Notes: generated from the letters alone by a model not told the origin. A stretch of 64,000 nt of DNA from Acidobacteriota bacterium (GCA_022340665.1 JAJDNM010000043.1:29489-93488), one strand, 5' to 3'; positions 46,924 to 63,040 are shown, numbered from the stretch's first letter. Numbers and translations are program-made.

Positions 46924-48111
46924 GTGAAGACCGAGCTGGTTCTCGTTGGTGGTGGGCTCGCCAACAGCCTGATCGCCCACCGGATCCTCATGAAGCGTCC
47001 AGACTTTCCGCTGGTCGTGGTGGACCGTTGTGCCTCCCTCGGCGCCAACCACACCTGGTCCTTTCACGACTCGGATCTGACGGCCGAGCAACGGCGGTGG
47101 ATTGAACCGCTGATTGCCAACCGCTGGTCGAGCCACAAGCTTCGCTTCCCCGGCCGGCGCCGCACCATCAGCGGCGGCTACAACTCAGTGACCTCGGAGC
47201 ATCTGCACGAGGTCGTCGCGCCGGCCCTGGGAAACCGGCTGCGACTCGAGACGGAGGTAGCGGAGGTTACTCGTGGCGGCATCGTGCTGGCAACCGGTGA
47301 GCGTATCAACGCTCGAACCGTGATTGACGGTCGTGGCGACCCGGGCGGAGATCACCTGGATATTGCCTTCCAGAAGTTCCTCGGTCTCTTTGTTCGACTT
47401 GCCGAGCCGCACGGGCTCGAGGGGCCGATCCTGATGGATGCCACTGTCGAGCAGACGGACGGTTACAGATTCGTCTATTCCCTCCCGTTCACCGATTTCG
47501 ACCTGCTCATTGAGGACACCTACTACGCCGACGGGCCAACCCTCGATCGGCCTCGGCTCCGGACCGAAATCGAGGCCTACGCGGCTGATCAGGGTTGGAC
47601 CATCGCCGCGATCACTGGCGAGGAGGCGGGGGTTCTGCCGATTGTCCTCGGCGGCGATATCGAAACCTTCTGGGCCGCCGGGCCGGAAGGGGTGGCCCGC
47701 AGCGGAATGCGGGGAGCGTTCTTCCACCCCACCACCGGTTACTCGCTCCCCGAAGGGGTTCGGCTGTCGGACGAGATCGCTGCAATCACCAACTTCGAGA
47801 GCTCCTCGCTCTTCGAGCTGACCCGCCGTCGTTCCGAAGAGCTGTGGCGCCGCACCGGCTATTACCGCCTGCTCAACCGGATGCTCTTCCGCGCTGCCGA
47901 GCCCGAGCTGCGCTACCGGATCTTCGAACGTTTCTATGGTCTGTCAGAAGGTCTGATCCGGCGGTTCTACGCCGGCCGCCTGAAATGGAGCGACAAAGCC
48001 CGTCTGTTGATCGGGAAACCGCCGGTGCCGGTTGGTCGGGCAATCCGATGCCTTGGCGAGAGCCGCCAAGCGAAGAGTACACTCTCACCGTCACGAGGAG
48101 GACCCCAGTGA
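46924..48111 (+). CDS. crtY: lycopene beta-cyclase
   Basis: LVLVGGGLANSLIA...NHTWSFHDSDL...RRWIEPL...VIDGRG aligns closely with my memory of Pantoea CrtY. GTG start. Confidence 0.88.
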   Translation: MKTELVLVGGGLANSLIAHRILMKRPDFPLVVVDRCASLGANHTWSFHDSDLTAEQRRWIEPLIANRWSSHKLRFPGRRRTISGGYNSVTSEHLHEVVAPALGNRLRLETEVAEVTRGGIVLATGERINARTVIDGRGDPGGDHLDIAFQKFLGLFVRLAEPHGLEGPILMDATVEQTDGYRFVYSLPFTDFDLLIEDTYYADGPTLDRPRLRTEIEAYAADQGWTIAAITGEEAGVLPIVLGGDIETFWAAGPEGVARSGMRGAFFHPTTGYSLPEGVRLSDEIAAITNFESSSLFELTRRRSEELWRRTGYYRLLNRMLFRAAEPELRYRIFERFYGLSEGLIRRFYAGRLKWSDKARLLIGKPPVPVGRAIRCLGESRQAKSTLSPSRGGPQ

Positions 48112-49604
48112 GGCAGAAGCGCGCAGCGGTCATCGGTAGCGGATTCGGCGGTCTGACATTGGCCGTTCGTCTGCAAGCGGCGGGAATTGAAACAACTGTC
48201 ATCGAGAAGCGTGACAAACCCGGCGGCCGCGCCTACGTCTACGAAGACGAGGGATACACCTTCGATGGCGGACCGACCATCATCACCGCCCCGCCCAGCC
48301 TCGAGGAGGTCTTCGCGGCCGCAGGTCGCGACATGTCGGACTTCATCACCCTGCTGCCGGTGATGCCCTTCTATCGGCTCTACTGGGAGGACGGTTACAC
48401 CTTCGATTACTCGAATGATCTGGAGGCGACCACCCAACAGATCGCCGACAAGAGTTTAAGCGACGTTGACGGCTACATGAAATTTCTCGATTACGCCGAG
48501 GAGGTCTTCCACGAGGGTTACACCAAGCTCGCGGCGACGCCGTTCCTCAGTTTTTGGAGCATGATCCAGGTCTCGCCCCAGCTTATCCGGCTGCAGAGCT
48601 ACCGCAGCGTCTACTCGATCATCTCCAAGTTCATCAAGGACGACCATTTGCGCCAGGTCTTCAGCTTCCACCCCTTGCTCGTCGGCGGCAACCCGTACAC
48701 CTCATCTTCGATCTATACCTTGATTCACTACCTCGAGCGTAACTGGGGGGTCTTCTTCGTCAAGGGCGGTACCGGAGCGCTGGTTACCGCGTTGGTCGAC
48801 CTCTTCGAGGAGCTCGGTGGCGAGATCCGCCTCGATTCTCCGGTGGAGCGGATCCACACATCCAACGGCGGGGTCACCGGGGTGACCACCGCAGATGGCT
48901 GGCACGGTGAGTTCGACGCCGTCGCAACAAACGCGGATGTGGTCCACACCTACGGCACCCTGCTCGGCGACAACGATTACGCCCGGCGTGAAGCGGCGCG
49001 GCTGAAGAGCAGGCGCTTCAGCATGTCGCTCTTTGTCGTTTATTTCGGGGTGCGGCGTCGGCACACCCAGATCGCCCACCACGACATCCTCTTCGGTCCG
49101 CGCTACAAACCCCACCTCCGCGAGATCTTCAACGGACCAGAAGTCTCCGACGACTTCTCACTCTATCTCCATGCCCCGACCCTGACCGATCCGTCGGTGG
49201 CGCCGGAGGGCTGCGAGGCCTTCTATGTCCTGTCGCCGGTCCCCCACCTCGGCAACGCGCCGGTCAACTGGAGCGAGGAGGGTCCAAGATACAGAGACAA
49301 AATCCTCGACTATCTCGAAAAACGCTACCTGCCGAATCTCCAGGCCGATATCGAGACCGTGCGGATCATCACCCCCGATCACTTCAAGAATACCCTCAAC
49401 TCGCACCTCGGCTCGGCCTTTTCGCTCGAGCCGATCCTGACCCAGAGCGCCTGGTTCAGAGTCCACAATAGGGACGGGAAAATCGGCGGTCTGTACTTCG
49501 TCGGCGCCGGAACCCATCCGGGGGCCGGGGTCCCAGGCGTGGTCAACTCGGCCAAGGCAACCGCCGGATTGATGATCGGCGACCTCCTGGGCGAGGGAGG
49601 TTGA
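48108..49604 (+). CDS. crtI: phytoene desaturase
   Basis: GTG start overlapping the crtY stop (GTGA), preceded by GAGGAGGA. AAVIGSGFGGLTLAVRLQAAGIETTVIEKRDKPGGRAYVYEDEGYTFDGGPTIIT is the classic CrtI N-terminus. Confidence 0.92.
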   Translation: MRQKRAAVIGSGFGGLTLAVRLQAAGIETTVIEKRDKPGGRAYVYEDEGYTFDGGPTIITAPPSLEEVFAAAGRDMSDFITLLPVMPFYRLYWEDGYTFDYSNDLEATTQQIADKSLSDVDGYMKFLDYAEEVFHEGYTKLAATPFLSFWSMIQVSPQLIRLQSYRSVYSIISKFIKDDHLRQVFSFHPLLVGGNPYTSSSIYTLIHYLERNWGVFFVKGGTGALVTALVDLFEELGGEIRLDSPVERIHTSNGGVTGVTTADGWHGEFDAVATNADVVHTYGTLLGDNDYARREAARLKSRRFSMSLFVVYFGVRRRHTQIAHHDILFGPRYKPHLREIFNGPEVSDDFSLYLHAPTLTDPSVAPEGCEAFYVLSPVPHLGNAPVNWSEEGPRYRDKILDYLEKRYLPNLQADIETVRIITPDHFKNTLNSHLGSAFSLEPILTQSAWFRVHNRDGKIGGLYFVGAGTHPGAGVPGVVNSAKATAGLMIGDLLGEGG

Positions 49605-49614
49605 GGACAACCCC

Positions 49615-50559
49615 ATGGACCACGTCGTCAATCACGGGCAGGCCGTCATCGAAAAGGGCTCGAGCAGCTTCGCGGCCGCGGCGAAGCTCTTTGACCCTGC
49701 GACCCGTGGCCGCGCCTCCATGCTCTACGCCTGGTGCCGCCACTGCGATGATCAAACCGACGATCAGGAGCTCGGGTTCGACGGCTCGCAACTGCCTCCT
49801 GAAGAAGGGCAAGCGCGGGTTGATAGGCTGCGGGCCGAGACGCTGGAAGCCCTTTCCGGGGAACCCACCAGTGATCCGATCTACGCGGGTCTCCAGCGAG
49901 TGGTCGCCGACTGCGACATACCCCATCGCTATCCCATGGAGCACCTCGACGGTTTTGTCATGGATGTCGAGGGCCGCGCGTACCAGAACCTCGATGATAC
50001 GGTGGAGTACTGCTACCACGTCGCCGGGGTGGTCGGGGTGATGATGGCCTACGTCATGGGCGTCCGGGACGAGCCAACCCTCGACCGCGCGACCGATCTC
50101 GGGCTCGCCTTCCAGCTGACCAACATCTGCCGCGATGTGGTGGAAGACGCCGAGGTCGGACGCGTATACCTCCCCCTCGACTGGCTGACCGACGCCGGTA
50201 TCCCGGCCAACAGGGTCGCGGCGCCCGAGCACCGGGATCGCGTCTTCGAGGTGGTCCGGCGGATTCTTTTCGAGGCCGACCGCTACTACCAATCGGCCTG
50301 GCTGGGGATCTCTCAACTGCCGCCTCGTTCAGCCTGGGCGGTGGCGGCCGCTAACGCGGTCTACAGCGACATCGGCCGGCTGATCCTCGAGCGCGGTCCG
50401 CGTGCCTGGGACACGCGGACGTCAACCAGCAAGGCACGAAAAATTGCGCTCGTGCTCGGCGCCGGACCAAGGTCCTGGACGGCGAGATTGTGGGGCAAGG
50501 CGCCCGGTGACGAGCCGCGAGACCGGTTGTGGACGCGGCCGGCCCGCTCTCATGAGTGA
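49615..50559 (+). CDS. crtB: phytoene synthase
   Basis: SFAAAAKLFDPATRGRASMLYAWCRHCDDQTDDQ, plus the second Asp-rich motif region (YCYHVAGVVG...). Confidence 0.92.
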   Translation: MDHVVNHGQAVIEKGSSSFAAAAKLFDPATRGRASMLYAWCRHCDDQTDDQELGFDGSQLPPEEGQARVDRLRAETLEALSGEPTSDPIYAGLQRVVADCDIPHRYPMEHLDGFVMDVEGRAYQNLDDTVEYCYHVAGVVGVMMAYVMGVRDEPTLDRATDLGLAFQLTNICRDVVEDAEVGRVYLPLDWLTDAGIPANRVAAPEHRDRVFEVVRRILFEADRYYQSAWLGISQLPPRSAWAVAAANAVYSDIGRLILERGPRAWDTRTSTSKARKIALVLGAGPRSWTARLWGKAPGDEPRDRLWTRPARSHE

Positions 50560-51499
50560 TCGAGCCGCGAATCACGGCAGCGTCGAAGCTGCACACGCCC
50601 TGCTGGTCCGCGACGTGGTCAAGCGTTTCGGACCCAATACGGCCCTCGACCATGCCGGATTCGAGCTGCGACGGGGCGAACGTCTGGCCCTACTCGGGCC
50701 CAACGGCGCCGGCAAGACCACCCTGGTGCGATGCATCTGCGGCCTTGCGGTACCCGATTCCGGGGAGATCGAGATGCTGGGATGGCGTCTGCCCCCGAGC
50801 GGCGGGCGTCACGAGCTGGGCTTTGTCCCGCAGGAGATTGCTCTCTATCCCGATCTTACGGCCAACGAAAACCTCGACGCCTTCGGCCGCTTCCACGGAC
50901 TCAGGGGCGGCGAGCTGCGTCGGGCGGTCGACTGGGCGCTGGATTGGACCGGTCTCGCCGACCGGGCCGGTGATCTGACGAGGACCTACTCGAGCGGCAT
51001 GAAACGACGCCTCAACATCGCCTGCGGTGTCCTCCACCGGCCGCTCATCCTCCTTCTCGACGAGCCGACAGTTGGTGTTGATCCGCAGAGCCGCGAGCGG
51101 ATCTTCGCCATGTTGGACGAGTTGTGGCACCACGGAACATCGATCCTGCTGACCACTCATCAGCTGGAGGAGGCGGAACAGCAGTCTGATCGGATCGTCA
51201 TCATTGACCACGGCCACGCCATTGCCGAGGGCACGCTGACCGAGCTCATCGCGAACACGGTGGGCAGCAATCGAAGGGTGATCTTCAAGCTCGCCGAGGC
51301 GTGTCCGAAGCTCGACGGCATGACCATCGACGGCGATCACCGGGAGCTCGTCGCCGAGGTCGAGGATGTCGCCCTCGAACTCCCAGATCTGCTGATTCGA
51401 ATCCGTGAGAGTGGTGGCAAGGTACTCGACCTCGACGTCCATCCCCCTTCGCTCCACTCCGTTTTCATCCACCTCACCGGCCGGGAGCTGCGCGAATGA
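50552..51499 (+). CDS. ABC transporter ATP-binding protein (ABC-2/NatA type)
   Basis: Start is the ATG at 50552, overlapping the crtB end by 8 nt. Walker [10 protein letters not shown], signature YSSGMKRRL, Walker [12 protein letters not shown]. Confidence 0.85.
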
Positions 51500-52701
51500 T
51501 CTGGACGGTGGTTCGCGTAGGGCTGCTGCGCATGTGGCACGGTCGGACGGAAATCCTCCTGACTTTCGTTGTACCCATCGTCTTCTTCACGATCTTCGCC
51601 TTTATCTTTGACGAACAGATAGGGTTGGGGAAATCGCCACGAGTCAACCTGGCGCTGGTCGATGAGGATGACACCGGACTCAGCCGCGAGCTTCTCTCCG
51701 CGCTCGCCGAGTGGGACACTCTGCACATCTATGCCCCGCCGGACTACGGCGACGGTCTCTTCGTCTTCGCCTCGAGAGCGCCGGTAAGGGAGCTTGTTCT
51801 CGCCGGTACGATTCAGCTGGCTGTGGTCATCCCGGAGGGCTGGACGGTTTCCCGCTTGAATCCGGGCGACGAGTCTGTGAGCCTCCAGCTGCTGGCGGAT
51901 TCCTCGGACCCCGTCGCCACCCAAGTTGTCAGCGCGCTTCTTCGACAGACCGTGGGACAACTCACAGGCGAACGTGTTCGTGAGCAGATTCGATCCTTCC
52001 TGTCGCTCTCGCCCGACCGGTTCGCCGAGTCCCCGCTCTCCAGCTTGGCGGCTCCCATCGCCATCGACGTGGTCGACCTCCTCGCCGCCGACAAGGCCAA
52101 CCCCGTGGTGTCCATGTACGCCGCCGGCATCGCGGTGATGTTCCTGCTCTTCGGTGCTGTGGGCAACTCCGGAACGCTGCTCGAGGAGGAGGAGAATCAG
52201 ACCCTCGAGCGGCTGATGTGCTCGGAGCTCGGCATGACCCAGCTCTTGGCGGGCAAATGGTTGCTCATGACCATCGTCGGCATCATCCAGGTCACCATCA
52301 TGTTCGCTTGGGCTGAGCTCGCTTTCGGTGTGGACTTCCTGGGCCACCTCTCGGGCTTCACGGTGATGACGGTCGTCACCGCCGGCGCCGCGAGCAGTTT
52401 CGCGCTTACTCTGGCCGCCCTCTGCACCAACCGCGCACAGCTCAACGCTGTCGCCGTCATCCTGATCCTCTCCATGTCCGCGCTGGGCGGCAGCATGGTG
52501 CCCCGTTATGTGATGAGCGAGGCCATCCAGCAGATCGGTAAAATCACCTTCAACGCGTGGGCCCTCGACGGCTACAACAAGGTTTTTTGGCGCGATCTGC
52601 CAATCACGGCCCTCGCGCCCGAGCTCGCCGTGCTGACCGTGACCGCCATCATCCTCTTCGGCGCTGCCCGACTCCTGGCCCGGCGTTGGGAGAGCTCGTG
52701 A
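51496..52701 (+). CDS. ABC-2 type transporter permease
   Basis: 401 aa with an N-terminal TM helix, a large extracytoplasmic loop and C-terminal ABC-2 membrane helices. It has a 4-nt overlap with the ATPase gene. Confidence 0.8.
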   Translation: MIWTVVRVGLLRMWHGRTEILLTFVVPIVFFTIFAFIFDEQIGLGKSPRVNLALVDEDDTGLSRELLSALAEWDTLHIYAPPDYGDGLFVFASRAPVRELVLAGTIQLAVVIPEGWTVSRLNPGDESVSLQLLADSSDPVATQVVSALLRQTVGQLTGERVREQIRSFLSLSPDRFAESPLSSLAAPIAIDVVDLLAADKANPVVSMYAAGIAVMFLLFGAVGNSGTLLEEEENQTLERLMCSELGMTQLLAGKWLLMTIVGIIQVTIMFAWAELAFGVDFLGHLSGFTVMTVVTAGAASSFALTLAALCTNRAQLNAVAVILILSMSALGGSMVPRYVMSEAIQQIGKITFNAWALDGYNKVFWRDLPITALAPELAVLTVTAIILFGAARLLARRWESS

Positions 52702-52760
52702 GCGGCTCCCGGGATTCTCCCTTCAAAGGGTGGCGCCGATTGCCGGGCTACAATGCCCCC

Positions 52761-53231
52761 ATGACCAACCACCGCAATCGAATCGCGTTCGTTCTCGCTG
52801 TCATGGCTCTCTCGGCCTGCGCCTCGGCGCCACCGGGAACCCCGGAGCTCCGACCCGAGGGACACGGCCGGGTCGAGGTCACCGTGACAGGATTCAAAAA
52901 CGATGAGGGAGCGGCCCGCGTCGCCCTCTTTCTTGATGCCAGAGTATGGCCCGACGGGGACGGCTCCATCTTCGGCACCGCGGTGGCTCCCATCAGCGAT
53001 GGCCAGGCTGTTGCTGTCTTCGAGGAAGTGCCGGCCGGCCCCTTCGCGGTTTCCGTATTCCACGACGAAGACGGCGACGGTGAGCTCGATTCGACGGCGC
53101 TTGGCATTCCGTCGGAGCCCTACGGTTTTTCGGGCGACGCCCGCGATCTCTTTGGACCGCCGAGCTTCGAGGAAGCGCGAATCGAGCTCGCCGCGGGAGA
53201 AACGCAACAGATCACCATTCGGGTCAAGTAG
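52761..53231 (+). CDS. DUF2141 family lipoprotein
   Basis: Lipobox MTNHRNRIAFVLAVMALSAC. VTVTGFKNDEGAARVALF...VFHDEDGDGELDSTALGIPSEPYGFSGDA matches the DUF2141 pattern. Confidence 0.72.
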   Translation: MTNHRNRIAFVLAVMALSACASAPPGTPELRPEGHGRVEVTVTGFKNDEGAARVALFLDARVWPDGDGSIFGTAVAPISDGQAVAVFEEVPAGPFAVSVFHDEDGDGELDSTALGIPSEPYGFSGDARDLFGPPSFEEARIELAAGETQQITIRVK

Positions 53232-53239
53232 GCTTCAGG

Positions 53240-54751
53240 ATGGAAGAACTGATCCTGCCGCGACGGGGTACGCACGATAAGATCCGAGCGCCGCAGACGG
53301 CGGTCATCGCTGGCGGCGGTCTCGCAGGAATCGCCGCGGCGGTGGCCCTCGCGGAGCGTGGCGTCACGGTCGTTCTGGCCGAGCGTGAGTCCTTTCTCGG
53401 CGGCCGCGCCGGGGCGTGGACCGACCGCCTCGCCTCTGGCGAATCGTTCGAGATGGAACGCGGCTTTCACGCCTTTTTTCGCCAGTACTACAATCTTCAG
53501 GCTCTCCTCCGACGGATCGATGACGGGCTGACATTCCTCGAACCCCTCGAGGATTATCCGATTCTCGGCCCCGGAGGCCAGGTAGAGTCCTTCTCGGGGT
53601 TGCCCAAGAAACCCCCGTGGAATGTCGTCGCTCTCACCAAAAGGACACCGACTCTCGGTCTGAGAGATCTCATCAAGGTCAACGGCCTCGCCGCGCTTTC
53701 AATGCTCCGCTACGAACGAGGGTGGACCTACGCACGTTACGACGAACAGACCGCCGCCCAGTATCTGGATTCGCTCAGGTTCCCACCCGACGCCCGACGC
53801 ATGCTGTTCGATGTCTTCGCCCACTCCTTTTTCAATCCGGAGGAGGCGATGTCGGCGGGAGAGCTGTTGATGATGTTCCACTTCTACTTCTCGGGCAACC
53901 CGGAGGGGCTTATCTTCGATGTCTCGAAAAGACCCTTCTCGAAGTCCATCTGGGGCCCCCTGTCCGACTACATAACGGGGCTGGGAGTCGACGTGCGGAC
54001 CGGCTGCACCGTATCGCGGATCGCGAAAGGCACCGAAAGGAAGTGGAGCGTCGACCTCGACGGGGAGATCGTGGAAGCCGACTTCGTGGTCCTCGCCCTG
54101 ACCGTGCCCGGCCTCCAGGCCGTCGTAGCCGAGTCGCCCGACCTCGACGACGCCGATTTCCGCCGCTCGGTGCACGGCCTGGCCCTCACCCACCCCTTCG
54201 CCGTCTGGCGGCTATGGTTCGACCGGCCGGCCAACGTCGGTCGGCAGCCGTTTGTCGGGACCACCGGTGTCGGATCGCTCGACAACATCTCGTTGTACAA
54301 CCTCTTTGAAGACGAGAGCAGAAGCTGGTCCGAACGGACCGGCGGATCGGTGGTGGAGCTTCACGCCTACGCCGTCGATCCCAAAATGGGCGAGCCCGAG
54401 ATCCGCGAGGACCTCCTGAGCGCCCTCGACACCTTCTACCCCGAGTACGCCGGCGCTCGGGTCGTCGAGGAGCGTTTCCTGATCCGGCACGACTGTCCAG
54501 CCTTCGCTCCAGGATCCCATTCCGATCGACCTGGTGTTCCAACCCCGCACGAGGGCGTCGTGCTGGCCGGTGATTTTGTTCGCCTGCCGATTCCCAGCGC
54601 ATTGATGGAGCGCGCGGTGGCTTCGGGCTTTCTCGCCGCAAACCACCTGCTGGCGCCCCAAGCCGTCAAACCCGAGCCCATACGCTCGATCCCGCGGCGC
54701 GGCCTCTTCGGCCGCCGTAGGAGAGAGACGGAAGCGAGTTGCATGCGATGA
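53240..54751 (+). CDS. FAD-dependent oxidoreductase, CrtU/isorenieratene-synthase-like carotenoid desaturase family
   Basis: Dinucleotide fold VIAGGGLAGIAAAVALAERGVTVVLAERESFLGGRAG. The block RGFHAFFRQYYNL and the ~500-aa size match my memory of CrtU-type enzymes. It sits inside the crt cluster. The specific function is not proven. Confidence 0.55.
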   Translation: MEELILPRRGTHDKIRAPQTAVIAGGGLAGIAAAVALAERGVTVVLAERESFLGGRAGAWTDRLASGESFEMERGFHAFFRQYYNLQALLRRIDDGLTFLEPLEDYPILGPGGQVESFSGLPKKPPWNVVALTKRTPTLGLRDLIKVNGLAALSMLRYERGWTYARYDEQTAAQYLDSLRFPPDARRMLFDVFAHSFFNPEEAMSAGELLMMFHFYFSGNPEGLIFDVSKRPFSKSIWGPLSDYITGLGVDVRTGCTVSRIAKGTERKWSVDLDGEIVEADFVVLALTVPGLQAVVAESPDLDDADFRRSVHGLALTHPFAVWRLWFDRPANVGRQPFVGTTGVGSLDNISLYNLFEDESRSWSERTGGSVVELHAYAVDPKMGEPEIREDLLSALDTFYPEYAGARVVEERFLIRHDCPAFAPGSHSDRPGVPTPHEGVVLAGDFVRLPIPSALMERAVASGFLAANHLLAPQAVKPEPIRSIPRRGLFGRRRRETEASCMR

Positions 54752-55722
54752 GCAAGCTCCTGAAGTTCGGTCCGCCGCTCCCAGCTGTGGAGGTCCCCAA
54801 GTCCTCCCTCGCTCCCGATTGGCAACAGGCCAGACCCCGAGCCATCAGTCGCTCCCTCCGGAGGGCGCTTGACCGGCCGCACGGCAATTGGTACGTGGTC
54901 GGCGAATCGCGCAGTTTTGGTGAGAAAGCACAGCGTCTCCGAATTGCGGGCGAGGACCTGGTCGGCTGGAGGGTCGACGGTGAGCTGCTAATCGCCCCGG
55001 ACGCGTGCCCCCACATGGGAGCATCCCTTTCGGACGGCCGAGTTCGGGAGGGCAGGCTGGTCTGCCCCTGGCACGCGCTGGCTCTGGGCAAGGAGGGGCA
55101 CGGAGACTGGAAGATGTTTGCCGTTCACGAAGACGGCGTCCTCAGCTGGGTTCGGATCGGTCCCGAAGTTCCCGGAACCCCACTTCCCATTCTCGCCCCT
55201 CGACCCGACATCCATCTCGAGGGGGTGATCCGGCTCGAGGCGCGGTGCGACCCCGAGGACATCATCGCCAACCGGCTCGACCCCTGGCACGGTGTCCACT
55301 TCCACCCGTACTCCTTCGCCGCGCTGACCGTCCTCGATCTCGATGATGACATCGTCAAAGTGCGGGTGGCCAAGAGGCTTCTCGGGCGCATCGTCGCAGA
55401 GACTGATGCGACCTTTCACAGTCCGGAACCGCGCTCGATCGTCATGACCATTGTCGAGGGCGAGGGCAAGGGCTCGGTGGTTGAAACGCACGCGACCCCC
55501 ATCGAACCGGGGCGCACTCTGGTCGTTGAAGCAACGCTCGCGACTTCGGATCGCGCGGGCTTTCGACACGCACGGAAGTTGCAACGCTTTATACGACCAT
55601 TCATCGAACGATCCGCTCGCCGCCTCTGGGTCGATGACGCCGCCTACGCGGAGCGACTATATGAACTCCGCAACCGCTCGACAGGGTCAAAGTCAGAACG
55701 CGGTGACGCGATCCATGGTTGA
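54748..55722 (+). CDS. Rieske [2Fe-2S] non-heme-iron oxygenase-like protein
   Basis: Rieske motif CPHMGASLSDG...LVCPWHA. A candidate mononuclear iron motif is NRLDPWHGVHFH (D-x2-H-x4-H). ATGA overlap with the upstream FAD gene. Confidence 0.75.
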   Translation: MSKLLKFGPPLPAVEVPKSSLAPDWQQARPRAISRSLRRALDRPHGNWYVVGESRSFGEKAQRLRIAGEDLVGWRVDGELLIAPDACPHMGASLSDGRVREGRLVCPWHALALGKEGHGDWKMFAVHEDGVLSWVRIGPEVPGTPLPILAPRPDIHLEGVIRLEARCDPEDIIANRLDPWHGVHFHPYSFAALTVLDLDDDIVKVRVAKRLLGRIVAETDATFHSPEPRSIVMTIVEGEGKGSVVETHATPIEPGRTLVVEATLATSDRAGFRHARKLQRFIRPFIERSARRLWVDDAAYAERLYELRNRSTGSKSERGDAIHG

Positions 55723-56649
55723 ACGCGTGTAGAACCGGGCGAGGTTTGCCAACTGGTTGCCCGACCGGCCCAAAGGCTCGAGGGCCGAAGCGGCCGACTC
55801 GACATAGCGGAAGACCTCCTGTCGAGTGCCGTCAGCGCCCAGCCGCGAGGCGAGAGTCGACTTCTGGTCGTCCTGGCCGGTGTCCTTACCGATGTCTTCC
55901 CGAGAACCGAAGGTGTCGAGAAGATCGTCGAGCAACTGAAAGGCGAGCCCCAGGTTGACACCGTACTCCCGCACCGCCTTGACCCATGCATCATCAACGC
56001 CGGCGACGAGCGCGCCCGCTTCCAAAGCTGCCACGAAGAGCGCACCGGTCTTCTGGCCATACATCTCGGTCAGACCGGCCAGATCATCGCCGTGGCCGTG
56101 GCGGATCTGCAAATCACAGAACTGACCGGCGATGATCCCGTTACTACCGACCGACTCCGACAGAAGACGAGTCAGGTCGAGGCGCGTCTGCGCCGACAGC
56201 AGATCACACTCGGCGATCACACCGAAGGCGCGGTTGAGCAGCGCGGTGGCGGCGAGAATCGCGGTGTCTTCGCCGTAGACCAGGTGGTTCGCCGATTGGC
56301 CGCGTCGCAGGCTGGCATCGTCCATACACGGAAGATCATCGAGAATCAGTGAGGCGGCATGAACCATCTCGACCGCGCACGCGACGTCGAGTGCTGCCTC
56401 CACGGAGGCACCGAGGTCGGTAGCCACCTGAATCGTGAGGACCGGACGGATCCGCTTGCCACCCGCGAGCAGGCTGTAGCGCATGGACTCGTGGAGCGGA
56501 CGTGGATCGGTGGACTCATCCGGGACGAGCTCCGCGAGGCGCTCGTTGATCCGGCCCCGCCAGAGGATACTGGCATCGCGTTGACCATCCTCCCGCGGGG
56601 CTAAACACAGCCTTCCATCGGAATCCAAACCCTCGATGCTGATACTCAT
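55693..56649 (-). CDS. crtE: polyprenyl (geranylgeranyl) diphosphate synthase
   Basis: Asp-rich motifs LILDDLPCMDD and FQLLDDLLD. It is convergent with the Rieske gene and the 3' ends overlap by 30 nt. Confidence 0.85.
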   Translation of the reverse strand: MSISIEGLDSDGRLCLAPREDGQRDASILWRGRINERLAELVPDESTDPRPLHESMRYSLLAGGKRIRPVLTIQVATDLGASVEAALDVACAVEMVHAASLILDDLPCMDDASLRRGQSANHLVYGEDTAILAATALLNRAFGVIAECDLLSAQTRLDLTRLLSESVGSNGIIAGQFCDLQIRHGHGDDLAGLTEMYGQKTGALFVAALEAGALVAGVDDAWVKAVREYGVNLGLAFQLLDDLLDTFGSREDIGKDTGQDDQKSTLASRLGADGTRQEVFRYVESAASALEPLGRSGNQLANLARFYTRSTMDRVTAF

Positions 56650-56905: not shown

Positions 56906-57256
56906 TTAGTCCAGGCGTGTTGATGCGAGAAATGTCACCGAGCTCACGGTCGCGCACAGCACCGTGCCCCAAACCAGGTCGACCAGAGCTACCTTCACGG
57001 GAAAGCCGTCCAGAGTGGCGAGGTTGGTGAGATCGTAGGCGGCGCAGGTGACAAGGCCGAACAGGGCTCCGAGAAGCACAGCGTGGGCGAAGCTCTCGCG
57101 TTCCATGGCCGGCAGGATGACGAGTACCACGAGACCAACCAGAAACAACAGATAAAAGGTGAAGGCGGCAGCCCAGTTGACACTGGGCTTCATGAGGTGG
57201 CCCATGTGCGTGTGGCAGAAACCTCGAGCGACCACTCCGAGCCAGACAAGATCCAC
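56906..57256 (-). CDS. DUF2177 family membrane protein, apparently lacking its normal N-terminal helix (start uncertain)
   Basis: VDLVWLGVVARGF....LGHLMKPSVNWAAAFTFYLLFLVGL...ALFGLVTCAAYDLTNLATLDGFP..VALVDLVWGTV matches DUF2177 as I recall it. The frame upstream of the GTG at 57256 is not membrane-like. See the TspO remnant. Confidence 0.5.
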   Translation of the reverse strand: MDLVWLGVVARGFCHTHMGHLMKPSVNWAAAFTFYLLFLVGLVVLVILPAMERESFAHAVLLGALFGLVTCAAYDLTNLATLDGFPVKVALVDLVWGTVLCATVSSVTFLASTRLD

Positions 57257-57393
57257 GACGGGGGTTTGAAGGACGGTTTGACCAGGGTCGGGTACCAGGT
57301 TGACACCGCCCGGGAGGTGGCGAGACCGGAGAGGCCGCCAACCACGATCGGCATCGCAACCGCGATGACCAGCTTCGCGAAATTGTTCATCAT
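57190..57393 (-). pseudogene. TspO/MBR (CrtK) N-terminal remnant (~48 codons), then out of frame with DUF2177
   Basis: MMNNFAKLVIAVAMPIVVGGLSGLATSRAVSTWYPTLVKPSFKPPSW is the TspO signature (WY..L.KP.F.PP.W). The expected continuation (F.PVW..LY...) is missing. The frame ends after 66 codons, and the DUF2177 reading frame takes over at the same nucleotides. Confidence 0.5.
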
Positions 57394-57572
57394 GGACTCC
57401 CGGTCGATGATACCCGAGTCCTGGGACGCGCCAACTCGCGCCGAGGGTCCACCGCAAATAGGGCGCACAGCAGGAGTCTCCATTCGCAGCGCTCATCACG
57501 AAAACCGCCGAGGCCGGCCCAATCTTGTTATCGGCCATCGTGACCAAAAAAGGCCTTCCAGAGCCTCGCCAC

Positions 57573-58442
57573 TCAATCCGCGGTCGTCTGCCGACCCTCT
57601 GCCGCAGGTCTCAGACTCGGAAGAAAGGCTGGAGTCGATCGAATGTACTCGGCATATCCCGGTCGTCGTTCGATGAGCGCCGCATCGAGCATGGCCACCC
57701 CCGACACCTTGATCAGCAGGAAGGTGATAAGCAGGGGACCGACCAGAGCGAGCCACCCTCCTGTCGGCAACGCGAGCAATCCGATTCCCCACCAGAGAAC
57801 CGCCTCACCGAAGTAGTTCGGGTGGCGGCTTCGCGACCAGAGACCGGCCTGCAACACCTTCCCTCTGTTGCTCGGGTCTTTTTTGAACCGAGCGAGCTGG
57901 CGGTCGGCCATGGTCTCGACCGCGAAGCCGATGACAAAGAGGGCGATTCCCACGCCGTCAAAGACGGTCAGCTCTGCCCCAGGACCAGGTTGCTGGGCCA
58001 GGAGGAGGGGTGATGAAACGATCCAGAGCAGCACTGCCTGGAGCAGAAAAACCTTGAAGTATGAGATCCACCAGAAGGAGGATCCGGCCTCTTCGCGCCA
58101 TTTCCGATATCGGTAATCCTCGCCCGTTCCGGCGTTGCGAATGCCGATGTGCAGCGCAAGCCGTGCGGCCCAGAGAGTCGCCAGCCCGACGACGAGGAGG
58201 CCGCGGGTGGTGGGATCGCCCGGGAGACTCAGTAGGGAGGTAACTCCAACCAGCACAAACCCCGGACCCCAGAAAATGTCGACGATGCTGGCGTTGCCGA
58301 TGACCAGGCTCACCATCCAGAGCACGGTGAAGGCGACCAACAGGAGCAATAAAGAGTTCATGAAGGGAAGGCCGCTCGCCAGCAGGAGGACGGCGCCCAC
58401 GCCTGTAGCGAGAACGAAAAAGATGGTCGTGCTTGGGCTCAT
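57573..58442 (-). CDS. DUF1295 (steroid 5-alpha-reductase/ICMT-like) membrane protein
   Basis: IVDIFWGPGF, GEDYRYRKW, and RHPNYFGEAVLWWG. Start MSPSTTIFF (ATG 58442) is preceded by GAGGGAG. Confidence 0.75.
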   Translation of the reverse strand: MSPSTTIFFVLATGVGAVLLLASGLPFMNSLLLLLVAFTVLWMVSLVIGNASIVDIFWGPGFVLVGVTSLLSLPGDPTTRGLLVVGLATLWAARLALHIGIRNAGTGEDYRYRKWREEAGSSFWWISYFKVFLLQAVLLWIVSSPLLLAQQPGPGAELTVFDGVGIALFVIGFAVETMADRQLARFKKDPSNRGKVLQAGLWSRSRHPNYFGEAVLWWGIGLLALPTGGWLALVGPLLITFLLIKVSGVAMLDAALIERRPGYAEYIRSTPAFLPSLRPAAEGRQTTAD

Positions 58443-58691
58443 GGGCAGCTCCCTCATCGTCTCCAAGGGTGACGGAATCGATAACCGCTTTCGGTACAGC
58501 GAAAAATGGCACCGTGCTATTTCCAAACCAACCGGCTCGAGGGCACACGTCGGCTCAAATATATTCTCCTTGACTCGCCATTGAGCTTCTCTCTATTTTT
58601 GTGTGGAATTCGCGTCAGCTGAAAATGATTCTGCAGGTGAGAGAACTGGCCGCGTGACCAGCGCGTCGGGCGGTCTGTGATGGGGTCAACG

Positions 58692-59939
58692 ATGAAGGTC
58701 GCCGTGGTCGGCAGCGGAATTTCCGGATTGGGGGCAGCGTGGCTGCTTAGCCGCCGGTACGAAATTCGACTATTCGAACAGCGGTCGCGACTGGGGGGTC
58801 ACACGCACACCGTGGTGCACGACGCCGACGGCCGAGGCCTTCCCCTCGACACCGGATTCATCGTCTACAACGAGAAGACCTACCCCCTCCTCACCCGGCT
58901 CTTCAATGAGCTGTCGGTCGAGACCCAGTCGAGCGACATGTCCTTCTCGGTGAGCTGCGCCGACCCGGACATCGAATACGCATCACACAGCCTGGGGGGG
59001 CTCTTTGCCAATCGATCTCTGGTCCTGTCGCCCACCCATCTGAGGATGCTCTTCGATATTGTCCGCTTCGGCCGACGGGGCCGGCAGATTCTCGCCGGGA
59101 CCGGAGATCCAGGGGTCACGATCGCCCAGTTTCTTTCCGCAGGACGATTCTCTCGGACCTTCACCACCTATTACCTGATGCCCATGGTCTCGGCAATCTG
59201 GTCCTCGGGGACTGAGGCCGCGGCTGACTACCCGAGAGATCCCCTGCTGCGATTCCTCGACAACCATGGCCTGCTCCAGGTCTCCGGGCAGCCCGAGTGG
59301 CGCACGGTGGTCGGCGGCAGCAGCAGTTACGTCGGGCCAATGACCAGACAATTTCGCGATCGCATCCTCCTCGGCCAAGGGGTGGAGAAGGTCATCCGCA
59401 GTGCCGACGGTGTGGAGATCATCCTCGACGACGACTCGAGACATGGCTTCGATCACGTGGTGATCGCCGCTCACGCCGATCAGGCGTTGGCGATGCTTGC
59501 CGAGCCGTCGGCGGAGGAGGTCGAACTTCTCGGCCGGTGGCGATACTCGGTCAACAGCACCTGGCTCCACACCGACACGGCCTTGATGCCACGGCGGCGG
59601 GCAGCCTGGGCGTCGTGGAACTACCTCATGTCCGATGCGAGTCGGGAGAGTGCGTCCTTGACCTACCACCTCAACCGGCTGCAGAGGCTCGACCAAGACC
59701 GCGAGTACCTGGTCTCACTCAACCCGGAAGCCGAACCGGTTTCCGAGTCCGTGATTCGCCGCATGTCCTACAGGCATCCGATCTTCACCCGCCAAAGCGT
59801 GGAGACCCAGAGCGAACTGCCGCGGATCAACGGTCGGAATCGGACCCATTTCTGCGGTGCGTACTTCGGTAACGGCTTTCACGAGGACGGATTGGCGTCG
59901 GCCGTCGCGGTCGCCGACGATCTCGGCGTGGCTTTCTGA
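58692..59939 (+). CDS. NAD/FAD-binding amine-oxidase-like oxidoreductase (UfaD-like)
   Basis: MKVAVVGSGISGLGAAWLLSRRYEIRLFEQRSRLGGHTHTV. This is the family that typically precedes DUF1365 and CFA-synthase genes. Confidence 0.8.
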   Translation: MKVAVVGSGISGLGAAWLLSRRYEIRLFEQRSRLGGHTHTVVHDADGRGLPLDTGFIVYNEKTYPLLTRLFNELSVETQSSDMSFSVSCADPDIEYASHSLGGLFANRSLVLSPTHLRMLFDIVRFGRRGRQILAGTGDPGVTIAQFLSAGRFSRTFTTYYLMPMVSAIWSSGTEAAADYPRDPLLRFLDNHGLLQVSGQPEWRTVVGGSSSYVGPMTRQFRDRILLGQGVEKVIRSADGVEIILDDDSRHGFDHVVIAAHADQALAMLAEPSAEEVELLGRWRYSVNSTWLHTDTALMPRRRAAWASWNYLMSDASRESASLTYHLNRLQRLDQDREYLVSLNPEAEPVSESVIRRMSYRHPIFTRQSVETQSELPRINGRNRTHFCGAYFGNGFHEDGLASAVAVADDLGVAF

Positions 59940-60700
59940 TGCCGGAGTCGGCACTCTTCCTGGGGCGAGTCCGACATCGGCGGACGGGCAATCCCGAACA
60001 CGAGTTCGCGTATCCCGTGTGGTACGCGCTCGTGGATTTGGACGATCTCGAGAGGCTCGATCGGAAACTGAGGTTCTTTTCGCACAACCGGTTCAACCTG
60101 ACCGGTTTTGACGATCGTGATCACATGGGTCCGGAGCTGAAGCCAGTCCGCGAGAAGCTCCAATCCTGGCTTCGACACCGAGGCGTTGAGCACGAACTCG
60201 GACGCATCGAGCTTCTCACCCACTTGAGAATCCTGGGTCAGGTCTTCAACCCGGTGTCGTTCTATTTCATCCGCGACACCGAGCAGAGACTGCTCCACGC
60301 CGTGGCCGAGGTCAACAACACCTTTGGCGAGACCTACTGCTATCTCCTCGCTGCCGACGGCTCCCGCGTCCGCCACGAGGCTGACAAGGTCTTCCACGTG
60401 TCGCCGTTCCAGCCCGTCGATGGCCGGTATCGGTTCCGAATCAACGAGCCGGGGAAGCGATTGACTGCACACATCGACGTCCTGAGAGACGGCGAGCGGG
60501 TCTTCGACTCGACTCTTTCCGTGATGCGCCGCGAGCTGAACTCGAGCTCGCTGATCAGGACTGTCGCGCGCCATCCCCACTTGAGCCTGCGGACCCTGGC
60601 CCTCATCCACTACCAGGCGGTTCGGCTGTGGCTCAAGAAAGCGCCCTTCTTTTCCAAGCCGGAGGCCCCAGCAGGCGCATGGAGGACCCGTCATGGCTGA
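59939..60700 (+). CDS. DUF1365 family protein (UfaO-like)
   Basis: LFLGRVRHRRTGNPEHEFAYPVWYALVDLDDL is the DUF1365 N-terminal signature. TGATG overlap with the upstream gene. Confidence 0.85.
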   Translation: MPESALFLGRVRHRRTGNPEHEFAYPVWYALVDLDDLERLDRKLRFFSHNRFNLTGFDDRDHMGPELKPVREKLQSWLRHRGVEHELGRIELLTHLRILGQVFNPVSFYFIRDTEQRLLHAVAEVNNTFGETYCYLLAADGSRVRHEADKVFHVSPFQPVDGRYRFRINEPGKRLTAHIDVLRDGERVFDSTLSVMRRELNSSSLIRTVARHPHLSLRTLALIHYQAVRLWLKKAPFFSKPEAPAGAWRTRHG

Positions 60701-61997
60701 TTTTTCACACCAACGTGAGCTGGCAGAAACCGCAGATGCCGGGGCATTCGTCGGAGCTTCCGATGCTGCAGTGGAAATCCGCCGTACGGAGCGACGCTCA
60801 CTGCCGCTGGCCGCGCGGATCGTGCTGGCCCGCCTTGCACGAATCCGGCGGGGCCACCTGATCGTCCGGCTGCCGGATGGATCGCGCCACACCTTTGGCG
60901 GTGGCGACGGCGGGGCCGCAGAGGTGGTGGAGCTCGATATTCACCGCTGGCGGTTTTTCTCGAGGCTGCTACGTCGTGCAGATGTTGGTGCCGGAGAGGC
61001 CTTTGTCGACGGAGATTGGTCGACCTCGAATCTGGTGCAGTTGACCCGTCTTTTCCTACGGAATGAAACCGAGCTCGCGCCGGCCAATGTTCTCGGAGCG
61101 ATCGGCCGTTTCCGTGATCGGTTGGCCCACCTCCTGAGAAGCAACACGCGAGCCCAGGCGCGCCGCAACATCCACGCACACTATGATCTTTCCAATCATT
61201 TCTACACGCTCTTCCTCGACCCATCCATGACCTATTCGTCGGCCCTTTTCGACCGCCCCGGCCTCGGCCTGGAGGCGGCACAGCGCCGAAAGTACCGGCG
61301 GCTCGCCGCCTGGGCCGGTCTTCAGCCCGGACACGACGTGCTCGAGATCGGCTGCGGCTGGGGCGGCTTCGCCGAGTACGCGGCCGGTGAACTCGGTTGT
61401 CGTGTCACTGCCATCACCCTCTCGGAAGAACAGGCATCCTTCGCGCGCCGCCGGATGATCGCTGCGGGGCTCAGTGACCGCGTTCAGATCGAAGTCGAAG
61501 ACTACCGAGATGTCGGCGGCGAGTACGATGCGGTGATCTCGATCGAAATGCTCGAAGCGGTTGGTCACCAGTTTCTTGACGGTTATTTCGGGGCCTGTGA
61601 CCGTGTTCTGCGGCCGGGCGGTCGAATGGTGCTGCAGACCATCACCATCCCCGACCAGGTTTACGACCGGTATCGACGCGGCACCGATTGGATCCGTGCC
61701 TACATTTTCCCAGGCGGTCACCTGCCGTCGCTCGGAGCGATCCAGGACTCGCTCGGTAGGAAGACCGGGTTCGTCATCGATCGGCTGGACAACATGGCTC
61801 ACCATTACGCGACCACCCTGAAGCACTGGCGTGCGCGATTCCAGTCACAGGAGGAACGGGTGCGAGCGCTCGGGTTCGACGACCGTTTCATGCGGATGTG
61901 GGATTTCTACCTGGCAACCTGCGAAGCGGCCTTCCGCGACCGACAGATCGGTGTGCTCCAGCTATCTCTGACCCGTAGCGGTCAGCGCGGACGATGA
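60693..61997 (+). CDS. cyclopropane-fatty-acyl-phospholipid synthase family SAM-dependent methyltransferase
   Basis: HYDLSNHFYTLFLDPSMTYSSALF and the SAM motif VLEIGCGWGGFA. 434 aa. Confidence 0.85.
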   Translation: MADFSHQRELAETADAGAFVGASDAAVEIRRTERRSLPLAARIVLARLARIRRGHLIVRLPDGSRHTFGGGDGGAAEVVELDIHRWRFFSRLLRRADVGAGEAFVDGDWSTSNLVQLTRLFLRNETELAPANVLGAIGRFRDRLAHLLRSNTRAQARRNIHAHYDLSNHFYTLFLDPSMTYSSALFDRPGLGLEAAQRRKYRRLAAWAGLQPGHDVLEIGCGWGGFAEYAAGELGCRVTAITLSEEQASFARRRMIAAGLSDRVQIEVEDYRDVGGEYDAVISIEMLEAVGHQFLDGYFGACDRVLRPGGRMVLQTITIPDQVYDRYRRGTDWIRAYIFPGGHLPSLGAIQDSLGRKTGFVIDRLDNMAHHYATTLKHWRARFQSQEERVRALGFDDRFMRMWDFYLATCEAAFRDRQIGVLQLSLTRSGQRGR

Positions 61998-63040
61998 GGT
62001 GGGCTATCGAACTCGCCGAACGGCGGATGTTGCCGGATCCTGTGGTCCGGGTGGGAATGCGTCGTTTGCTCCGTCAGCGGCTGCAGCAGGAACGGCGCAA
62101 GCGCGGCGGCAGTCACGGTGCGAGTGCTCAGGCATTCGCCGATGAGATGCGGTCGGAGCCGGTGGCCGTGGCCACCGCCGACGCCAACGAACAGCACTAT
62201 GAGTTGCCACCCGAGTTTTTCTCCGCCGTGCTCGGGCCGTACCTCAAGTACTCGAGCTGTTTCTGGAGCGAAGGTGTTCAGAGCCTCGCCGATGCCGAAA
62301 AGCGTATGCTCGAGCTGACCTGCGAGCGCGCTGGCGTCGCGAACGGAATGGATGTTCTCGATCTGGGCTGCGGCTGGGGTTCGTTCTCGGTTTGGGTCGG
62401 ACGCCACTTTCCCCGCTGCCGCGTGCTCGCGGTGTCCAACTCGCGCGCCCAGGCCGAGTTCATCCGCGCTCGGTGCGCGTCCGAGGGCCTGGATCGGATC
62501 GAGGTCGTCACCGCCGACATGAACGATTTCGGCACTGAACGGAAGTTCGACCGGGTGGTATCGGTGGAGATGTTCGAGCACATGCGGAACTGGGCGAAGC
62601 TCTTCGAGCGGGTGGCCGGGTGGTTGCGGCCCGAGGGCGCCTTCTTCCAGCACGTCTTCTGCCACCGGCGCTACGCCTACCTTTACAGTGATGAAGGATC
62701 GGGAGACTGGATGGCGCGCCACTTTTTCACCGGCGGCATCATGCCATCGCAGGACCTTCCCCTGCGATACGCCGATCACCTCGAGGTGGTCGATCAGTGG
62801 CGCGTCAGCGGTCTCCACTACAGCCTGACATTGGAGGCGTGGCTGGAGGAGATGGACCGCAATCGAGCACGTCTTCTACCGATTTTCGCTCGAACCTATG
62901 GCGAAGACACCGAGCGTTGGTTCGCTCGTTGGCGGATGTTCTTCATGGCATGTTCCGAGCTCTTCAGGTACGGTGACGGCAGGGAGTGGTGTGTTGCCCA
63001 CACTCTGATGCGGCCGCGGGATGGTGTGGCCGGAAAATGA
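61994..63040 (+). CDS. second CFA-synthase/mycolic-acid-cyclopropane-synthase family methyltransferase
   Basis: ANEQHYELPPEFFSAVLGPYLKYSSCFW and VLDLGCGWGSFS. 348 aa, with a 4-nt overlap to the upstream gene. Confidence 0.85.
   Translation: MRWAIELAERRMLPDPVVRVGMRRLLRQRLQQERRKRGGSHGASAQAFADEMRSEPVAVATADANEQHYELPPEFFSAVLGPYLKYSSCFWSEGVQSLADAEKRMLELTCERAGVANGMDVLDLGCGWGSFSVWVGRHFPRCRVLAVSNSRAQAEFIRARCASEGLDRIEVVTADMNDFGTERKFDRVVSVEMFEHMRNWAKLFERVAGWLRPEGAFFQHVFCHRRYAYLYSDEGSGDWMARHFFTGGIMPSQDLPLRYADHLEVVDQWRVSGLHYSLTLEAWLEEMDRNRARLLPIFARTYGEDTERWFARWRMFFMACSELFRYGDGREWCVAHTLMRPRDGVAGK

Follow-up and report, generated by a model that had tools for sequence, protein, structure and literature searches.

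A probable CrtU/CrtV-type aromatic-carotenoid operon with an embedded ABC-2 exporter and DUF2141 lipoprotein in a sediment acidobacterium

Gene content and organization of the locus

A stretch of 64,000 nucleotides from an Acidobacteriota bacterium (GCA_022340665.1 JAJDNM010000043.1:29489-93488), referred to here as the window, carries at positions 46924-56649 nine genes that probably form a CrtU/CrtV aromatic-carotenoid operon with an embedded ATP-binding cassette (ABC) exporter and lipoprotein. The open reading frame (ORF) map, Pfam and NCBIfam place each gene on the strand given by the original prediction, made from the sequence alone, and confirm the nine-gene cluster with convergent crtE that it described. 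By homology, this sediment acidobacterium has a Streptomyces-type aromatic-carotenoid gene set that lacks crtT and includes, in addition, genes for an ABC-2 exporter and a DUF2141 protein; the flavin adenine dinucleotide (FAD) enzyme/Rieske protein pair itself is known. The genes are as follows:

46924-48111, + strand: crtY, lycopene beta-cyclase (TIGR01789 equivalog, 465 bits, cut-off 215; Pfam Lycopene_cycl)
48108-49604, + strand: crtI, phytoene desaturase (TIGR02734, crtI_fam, 662 bits; GTG start)
49615-50559, + strand: crtB, phytoene synthase (Pfam SQS_PSY, 229 bits; NF042419, 381 bits, below the 480 cut-off)
50552-51499, + strand: ABC transporter ATPase, DrrA/NodI-like (ABC_tran, 104 bits; drrA subfamily, 223 bits, below the 312 cut-off)
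51496-52701, + strand: ABC-2 type permease (ABC2_membrane_3, 124 bits)
52761-53231, + strand: DUF2141 lipoprotein, predicted beta-sandwich (PF09912, 106 bits, gathering score 24.4; lipobox L-S-A-C, Cys20)
53240-54751, + strand: putative crtU-type FAD carotene desaturase/methyl-shifting aromatase, without an internal Rieske domain (Amino_oxidase, 120 bits; NAD_binding_8; CrtU homology)
54748-55722, + strand: putative crtV-type Rieske non-heme iron oxygenase (Rieske PF00355, 53 bits; DUF5914 PF19299, 227 bits)
55693-56649, - strand: crtE, probable geranylgeranyl diphosphate (GGPP) synthase, convergent (polyprenyl_synt, 180 bits; FPPsyn subfamily, 267 bits, and CrtE, 226 bits, both below their cut-offs)

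The junctions, read from the DNA, are tight along the forward genes. The crtY/crtI junction is a GTGA overlap, with GGAGGA ahead of the crtI GTG at 48108, and crtI and crtB are separated by a 10-nt gap. The ATPase gene (ATG at 50552) overlaps crtB by 8 nt and meets the permease gene in an ATGA overlap at 51496; gaps of 59 nt and 8 nt then separate the permease gene from that for DUF2141 (ATG at 52761) and the latter from the FAD-enzyme gene, which is translationally coupled to the Rieske gene through an ATGA overlap at 54748. The Rieske gene and crtE overlap tail-to-tail by 30 nt (55693-55722), and crtZ, crtW and crtX are missing from the nine-gene cluster, both as originally described. A scan for promoters and terminators gave no signal above chance. 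The GGPP specificity assigned to crtE comes from its context, since both subfamily scores fall below their cut-offs.

Base composition is even along the whole window and the cluster is flanked by the housekeeping genes sdhCAB, hemA and hemC, so it is taken to belong to the ordinary chromosome and not to an island. The closest relatives of all nine genes (77-94% identity) are in metagenome-assembled genomes (MAGs) labelled Candidatus Sulfomarinibacteraceae, Holophagae or Thermoanaerobaculales, the first being a family of the Acidobacteriota, class Thermoanaerobaculia. The host would thus be a Thermoanaerobaculales (Sulfomarinibacteraceae-like) acidobacterium of coastal wetland (salt-marsh) sediment with a chromosomal carotenoid operon.

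The CrtU-type flavoenzyme and the CrtV-type Rieske protein

The FAD enzyme has an N-terminal FAD Rossmann motif and an amine-oxidase/phytoene desaturase (PDS)-type fold, with a plant PDS (5mog) as the closest solved structure. It is 46% identical to the CrtU of a Streptomyces atratus cluster over 450 aa with zero gaps and 36% identical to the CrtU of Thiodictyon Cad16, and it can be aligned with the CrtI of its own operon only at the FAD motif. The S. atratus reference, on plasmid NZ_CP108284, is a classical isorenieratene cluster in which crtY-crtT-crtU converge on crtV-crtB-crtI-crtE. The RGFHAFFRQYYNL block, from which a CrtU had been suspected, is identical in Streptomyces CrtU; its core GFH(A/G)FFxQYYN (GFHAFFRQYYN in the FAD enzyme) was found in 60 of 63 CrtU-type rows, including Streptomyces, Thiodictyon and Calothrix, and was absent from the CrtI, CrtD and amine-oxidase outgroup rows.

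In a quick tree of 67 rows, the FAD enzyme groups at 100% support with the acidobacterial loci and a single gammaproteobacterial MAG. All CrtU of diderm phyla, including that of Thiodictyon and a CruE-like protein of Calothrix, form a 100%-supported clade, outside which the actinobacterial CrtU fall, and the CrtI and CrtD rows are far off. Thiodictyon CrtU is the characterised chi-ring enzyme of the okenone pathway described by Vogl & Bryant. By this placement, the FAD enzyme is bracketed by members of clusters with demonstrated aromatic products. It does not group with non-carotenoid amine oxidases or with CrtD, and identity, tree and signature block together uphold the CrtU-like reading of the original prediction. 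The FAD enzyme is therefore assigned, by homology, to the CrtU/CruE family, the carotene desaturase-methyltransferases (aromatases) of KO K09879, as a Rieske-less member of the Streptomyces type.

The family also appears discrete. When the FAD enzyme was searched by tblastn against 72,556 plasmids, only 18 records matched even at a relaxed threshold of E = 1e-3, and all of them carry CrtU-type genes, on plasmids of Streptomyces, Streptantibioticus and Kitasatospora, on pTs485 of Ca. Thiodictyon syntrophicum Cad16 and on a Calothrix plasmid. The three plasmid loci inspected were an isorenieratene-type cluster, a photosynthesis/carotenoid gene region and a gene beside a carotenoid oxygenase. It is the lack of HpnE or Pds outgroups among these relaxed plasmid matches that points to a discrete family. 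In JGI, names based on KEGG Orthology (KO) for relatives of the FAD enzyme are 'isorenieratene synthase' or 'carotenoid phi-ring/chi-ring synthase'. The label 'isorenieratene synthase' is also carried by many stand-alone Rieske/DUF5914 proteins; the KO model evidently spans both the FAD and the Rieske parts, so that numbers of crtU derived from KO assignments in metagenomes may be inflated.

Several observations weigh against a CrtU function. No CrtU-specific model is among the NCBIfam matches of the FAD enzyme, which is why HpnE (TIGR03467) heads the list, at 161 bits and below the 283 cut-off. The Pds/Zds/HpnE outgroups were not included in the tree, where the Thiodictyon and Calothrix branches are long, and the diderm Rieske-less clade has no characterised member. 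Together with the plant PDS as nearest solved structure, the HpnE match and this clade would suit an enzyme that carries out a non-aromatising reaction on a carotenoid or other isoprenoid, for example a simple ring desaturation or an HpnE-like dehydroxylation. An identity as the hydroxysqualene dehydroxylase HpnE itself was rejected, as the score is far under the cut-off and there is no hpnC/hpnD/shc context; the sole SQS_PSY gene nearby is crtB, in the crtY-crtI-crtB operon. With the gapless identity to a Streptomyces-type CrtU, the common signature block and characterised-type CrtU flanking it on both sides in the tree, a non-aromatising role is quite improbable for the FAD enzyme, and its assignment as a CrtU is preferred.

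The Rieske protein has a Rieske domain followed by DUF5914, a layout that fits the CrtV type (about 310-340 aa), and is 47% identical to S. atratus CrtV. It is accordingly regarded, by sequence homology, as an orthologue of actinobacterial CrtV and not merely as analogous to CruH. The CPH...CPWH and D-x2-H-x4-H motifs already noted in the original prediction hold throughout the family: the Rieske ligands C87/H89/C106/H109 and the iron ligands D178/H181/H186 are invariant in 22 homologues, and in two alignments the four Rieske ligands (CPH...CPWH, CxH-x16-CxxH) and NRLDPWHGxHFHP (D-x2-H-x4-H) are invariant or nearly so. The AlphaFold (AF2) model of the protein has a predicted local distance difference test score (pLDDT) of 91, and its top Foldseek matches are GxtA/SxtT, KshA, the dicamba monooxygenase DdmC and CarAa, over the whole length, at E ~1e-12 and a template modelling (TM) score of ~0.6. 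Because the model matches these alpha3 Rieske monooxygenases at full length, DUF5914 would be the catalytic helix-grip domain of a small Rieske oxygenase, and the protein looks like a complete, functional alpha3-type Rieske non-heme-iron monooxygenase. The Rieske/DUF5914 family is of modest size, with 71 clusters (50% identity) at E <= 1e-30, and a literature search on DUF5914 gave no match.

In metagenome proteins (P0244, P0272, P0257, P0282), the Rieske/DUF5914 module also occurs fused to a CrtU-type FAD domain (P0257, P0282), to lycopene cyclase and to phytoene synthase, and some of these fusion proteins may be gene-call artefacts. Three candidate CrtU-CrtV fusions were rejected: P0054 (736 aa) is a frameshifted gene call, and L017 and L047 contain an internal stop codon.

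CrtU-family enzymes come in two architectures. In Thiodictyon CrtU (634 aa; L008:7785-9689) and the Calothrix CruE-like protein (650 aa; L009:5770-7722), a Rieske [2Fe-2S] domain lies in the middle of the FAD enzyme and there is no DUF5914; Synechocystis CruE (Sll0254) is likewise described as enclosing a Rieske centre (PMC6553663). CrtU of the Streptomyces type, including the window enzyme, has no insert and has a separate Rieske/DUF5914 neighbour. Since CrtU and CrtV are split in this way, CrtV could instead be the redox partner of CrtU: electrons withdrawn from the beta-ring by the FAD would be accepted by the Rieske cluster (and iron site) of CrtV and handed on to O2 or a carrier, supplying in trans what the inserted Rieske domain does in cis in the CrtU/CruE of green and purple sulfur bacteria and cyanobacteria, with plain isorenieratene as the product.

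What has been reported for the actinobacterial CrtV bears directly on this choice. SCO0188 (crtV) is listed as a 'putative methylesterase' in an annotation table of S. coelicolor (PMC8539372), and CrtV has been called a Rieske non-heme iron oxygenase (PMC5993118). The S. argillaceus crtEIBV and crtQYTU genes expressed in S. albus give isorenieratene together with 3-hydroxy- and 3,3'-dihydroxy-isorenieratene and the O-methyl derivatives of these; with CrtV the only oxygenase and CrtT the only methyltransferase of that cluster, they were proposed as the isorenieratene 3-hydroxylase and the O-methyltransferase, respectively (PMC5993118). Three points run counter to a hydroxylase. According to Krügel 1999 (as cited in PMC5993118), S. 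griseus forms isorenieratene without CrtV and CrtT, and several crtV-bearing Streptomyces are reported to end at isorenieratene; because of both, hydroxylation by CrtV is a proposal and not a result. Also, no reductase or ferredoxin partner is among the nine genes of the cluster. A reductase may sit elsewhere in the genome, as with KshB.

The redox-partner role fits the presence of a Rieske domain within the Thiodictyon and Calothrix enzymes, the near-constant Rieske/DUF5914 neighbour of Rieske-less CrtU, the C-terminal CrtU-Rieske/DUF5914 fusions and the ATGA coupling of crtU and crtV in the window. Set against it are the same S. griseus result, in which CrtU works without CrtV, the entire invariant mononuclear-iron catalytic domain that CrtV retains beyond the Rieske module, and the hydroxylated products of a cluster in which CrtV is the sole oxygenase (PMC5993118); on these three grounds, the redox-partner role is judged unlikely. 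The original prediction had followed a CruE/CruH logic. On such a reading, a methyl group of the ring would be oxidised to a carboxylate by the Rieske enzyme, and the ABC system would export a synechoxanthin-like acid. Methyl groups can be hydroxylated by Rieske monooxygenases, the ligand and fold data show only an oxygenase, and an exporter would suit a more polar product; nevertheless, the direct homologue is CrtV, the Streptomyces products are ring 3-hydroxy and 3-methoxy compounds instead of acids (PMC5993118), and CrtT, an O-methyltransferase, accompanies CrtV in most lineages, consistent with a phenol. This makes C-18 carboxylation very improbable and ring 3-hydroxylation the more likely chemistry. 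From the original prediction, an oxygenase acting after a CrtU-type aromatase is retained, as homology and fold suggest, and the analogy gives way to a homologous CrtU/CrtV pair. By analogy with S. argillaceus, CrtV is thus read tentatively, at somewhat under an even chance, as an aromatic-ring hydroxylase.

Distribution of the genes and the exporter/lipoprotein module

When one genome per species was scanned for the NRLDPWHG motif, CrtV relatives were confirmed in at least 597 species genomes of about seven phyla, and loci were detailed for the best 80 of these. The 80 belong to Acidobacteriota, Myxococcota (including cultured Nannocystis), Gemmatimonadota, Gammaproteobacteria, Spirochaetia, Latescibacterota, one MAG labelled Thermodesulfobacteriota and many Actinomycetota. 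In a tblastn matrix of these genomes, crtU adjoins crtV in most and a CrtT-like methyltransferase gene is next to crtU in most lineages. The gene set is present in an acidobacterium; as a producer from another phylum it is less singular than had been supposed, with the pair spread over so many species and phyla. Isorenieratene potential had also been annotated in MAG surveys of Gemmatimonadota (PMC11316326) and Binatota (PMC8262859), so aromatic-carotenoid genes outside phototrophs and actinobacteria are not new in themselves.

Two gene arrangements were seen beside crtV in these genomes. In many Myxococcota/Gemmatimonadota (L019-L028, L036, L038), a divergent gene of the lycopene-cyclase family, 24-29% identical to the window CrtY, lies directly before the crtV-like gene (~1.2 kb upstream of the Rieske match), which converges on crtU-crtT. 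The cultured Nannocystis strains (L031, L056, L061) have a CrtV-like gene with a cyclase-like neighbour and no crtU within 10 kb; they could serve as culturable hosts for testing the function of CrtV.

The ATPase (ABC_tran) and the separate permease (ABC2_membrane), encoded by ATGA-coupled genes, correspond to an ABC-2 type exporter (DrrAB/NodIJ-like), with no named equivalog threshold reached. The permease has at least 120 close homologues at 71-87% identity, those with names being Acidobacteriota metagenome proteins; all matches returned by this search were at 71% identity or higher, so that it gives no view of remoter contexts. The AF2 model of the DUF2141 protein is a confident all-beta sandwich (pLDDT 84), and its relatives in crt loci all have a lipobox or signal peptide.

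Wherever the flanking sequence of an acidobacterial locus is long enough (L010, L011, L013, L014, L018, L059, L077), the genes for ATPase, permease and DUF2141 are present and their order is unchanged, so that the module is kept in the crt clusters of all close acidobacterial relatives, a point on which the original prediction had made its case depend. Two gammaproteobacterial MAG lineages (L004, L091) have all of the genes in three units, crtE-ABC-ABC2, crtY-crtI-crtB and DUF2141-crtU-crtV. Between acidobacterial and gammaproteobacterial versions, the crt enzymes are 41-70% and DUF2141 48% identical. With a DUF2141 hidden Markov model (HMM) and three more contexts, DUF2141 was also located directly upstream of crtU or crtT-crtU in L032, L050, L060, L090 and L092, these further contexts being a 'delta proteobacterium' MAG, a Polyangiales MAG, a Latescibacterota genome and two metagenome contigs; with the same HMM it was never found in actinobacterial crt loci. 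In Qipengyuania, DUF2141 lies beside crtG (PMC9241875). All DUF2141-bearing loci belong to a single subclade of the CrtU tree or branch beside it, which implies few independent events.

From these gene neighbourhoods it is argued that DUF2141 would be an exported, carotenoid-associated protein of diderm bacteria, and that the ABC-2 pair would have been recruited to the same task in the acidobacterial/gammaproteobacterial subclade. A role of both in envelope trafficking is advanced only as a doubtful suggestion. More speculative, and unlikely on present evidence, is the wider idea that DUF2141 lipoproteins with an ABC-2 exporter represent an unrecognised carotenoid-trafficking system of diderms, carrying phenolic aromatic carotenoids (antioxidants of the 3,3'-dihydroxyisorenieratene type) from the inner to the outer membrane.

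It is at least as likely that ABC-2 and DUF2141 are unrelated to the pigment, as parts of a general efflux or envelope module that entered an ancestral operon a single time and was carried along. The association is limited to one CrtU subclade, which may reflect a single acquisition spread by transfer, and Actinobacteria, most Myxococcota and most Gemmatimonadota are without the module. The ABC parts are only 30-37% identical between acidobacterial and gammaproteobacterial versions and reach no named family threshold, and DUF2141 gave only generic beta-sandwich matches in the PDB, by sequence search and by Foldseek of the model, none at E <= 0.001, so that its fold is uninformative. These observations speak against a role in trafficking. 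On the other side, the module stays with the crt genes after their rearrangement into three gammaproteobacterial transcription units, DUF2141 alone stays at crtU in at least four other lineages and at crtG in Alphaproteobacteria (PMC9241875), and the ATPase start overlaps the crtB stop in the window. It is from this persistence that a link of DUF2141 and ABC-2 to the carotenoid is proposed.

Other genes were noted around the relatives of the cluster. In L090, a 474-aa Rieske + VanA_C + PCP_red protein (6462-7886) and a major facilitator superfamily (MFS) transporter are encoded just upstream of the DUF2141-crtU-crtV trio, which has no other crt genes within 10 kb. A conserved 171-aa ORF without a Pfam match lies immediately downstream of gammaproteobacterial crtY (L004:8816-9331, L091:6757-7272), in L091 beside a cytochrome c' gene. 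The right flank of the window cluster (56906-63627) encodes DUF2177, DUF1295, an amine-oxidase-like FAD protein, DUF1365, two methyltransferases of the cyclopropane fatty acid (CFA)-synthase type and a CIA30 protein. A CIA30 gene also adjoins the gammaproteobacterial crt cluster (L004:1-83), and the two may share a photo-oxidative-stress neighbourhood.

Contigs near-identical to the cluster are present in marsh, salt-marsh, mangrove and rhizosphere metagenomes, and DNA contigs of two metagenomes span it with 0-2 differences per piece. A population variant was also seen in environmental contigs of two metagenomes: 9 nt (CCGAAAAAA) are inserted in frame behind position 50538, close to the 3' end of crtB and a short distance before the ATPase start.

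Predicted pathway, significance and comparison with known systems

As a strong family-level prediction, CrtE, CrtB, CrtI and CrtY would make beta-carotene. CrtU would then introduce double bonds into each beta-ring and move one of its methyl groups, making the end groups aromatic, and this aromatase step is likely, judged by homology. By analogy with Streptomyces, its product would most likely be isorenieratene (phi,phi). CrtV would hydroxylate the aromatic ring, with electrons from a reductase encoded elsewhere, to 3-hydroxy- and 3,3'-dihydroxy-isorenieratene. The ABC-2 exporter and the DUF2141 lipoprotein may move or hold the very hydrophobic pigment in the cell envelope. Two points count against this scheme: the type of ring, phi or chi, is not readable from the sequence, and the RNA that could speak for expression consists of a single exact 151-nt contig inside crtU in one rhizosphere metatranscriptome, which is compatible with transcription, could come from contaminating DNA and is too thin to count.

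In the tblastn matrix, crtT was found neither in the window, nor in seven related acidobacterial loci of 16-21 kb, nor in the gammaproteobacterial loci, so isorenieratene or the corresponding free phenols are predicted as the end product. Should CrtV act as the hydroxylase and CrtT as the methyltransferase, the acidobacterial/gammaproteobacterial clade would be expected to stop at the free phenols. Phenolic isorenieratene derivatives are prized as unusually strong antioxidants. With no CrtT to blur the product, the cluster offers a clean test bed for the function of CrtV, a gene product named in 1999, as well as a first handle on DUF2141 and a means of testing whether DUF2141 and an ABC-2 exporter handle carotenoids in the envelope.

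In the rock record, isorenieratane and related aryl isoprenoids serve as markers of green sulfur bacteria and of sulfidic water reached by sunlight. Alternative sources, namely cyanobacteria and actinobacteria, have already been recognised (PMC7395447). Among uncultured heterotrophs of coastal and marine sediments, including a widespread acidobacterial family, the complete CrtU/CrtV gene set is common, and if the clusters are active, these pigments could arise in or near the sediment. Should the wider trafficking idea be true, abundant non-phototrophic Acidobacteriota, Gammaproteobacteria and Myxococcota of sediments would be in-situ sources of isorenieratane-type signals that are now read as photic-zone euxinia.

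Several known systems resemble parts of the cluster. HpnN is a resistance-nodulation-division (RND) lipid exporter in hopanoid clusters, with genetic evidence for its role. As in HpnN-type export, a membrane transporter lies within an isoprenoid-lipid cluster of a diderm; in the window it is an ABC-2 pair with a lipoprotein, and the evidence is one of synteny only. The alpha3 Rieske monooxygenases KshA, SxtT/GxtA, DdmC and CarAa have the CxH/CxxH Rieske ligands and the D-x2-H-x4-H motif in common with the window CrtV, which differs from them in its 15-20% identity, in its shorter catalytic domain (DUF5914, ~185 aa) and in its substrate, presumably a C40 carotenoid. CruH of synechoxanthin biosynthesis is similar in concept, an oxygenase that follows an aromatase, and resembles the window CrtV in logic; its chemistry is expected to differ, with the C-18 methyl converted to a carboxyl as against the ring 3-hydroxylation proposed for CrtV.

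Thiodictyon Cad16 CrtU (chi-ring, okenone) and cyanobacterial CruE belong to the same flavoenzyme family and have the same signature block as the window enzyme, and the former is in the same 100%-supported diderm clade. They are only 34-36% identical to it and 130-150 aa longer, with their FAD domain interrupted by a Rieske [2Fe-2S] domain, and lack a DUF5914 partner. The closest counterpart in gene content is the Streptomyces isorenieratene cluster crtEIBV/crtYTU (S. griseus, S. coelicolor SCO0185-0191, S. argillaceus crta), which has the same crtE, crtB, crtI, crtY, crtU and crtV set and likewise a CrtU without an internal Rieske domain and a separate Rieske/DUF5914 oxygenase. In contrast to it, the window cluster is without crtT, has no LitR or sigma regulator genes beside it and is mostly a single forward operon; it further has an ABC-2 exporter pair and a DUF2141 lipoprotein gene between crtB and crtU, and its host is a diderm acidobacterium from anoxic-prone sediment.

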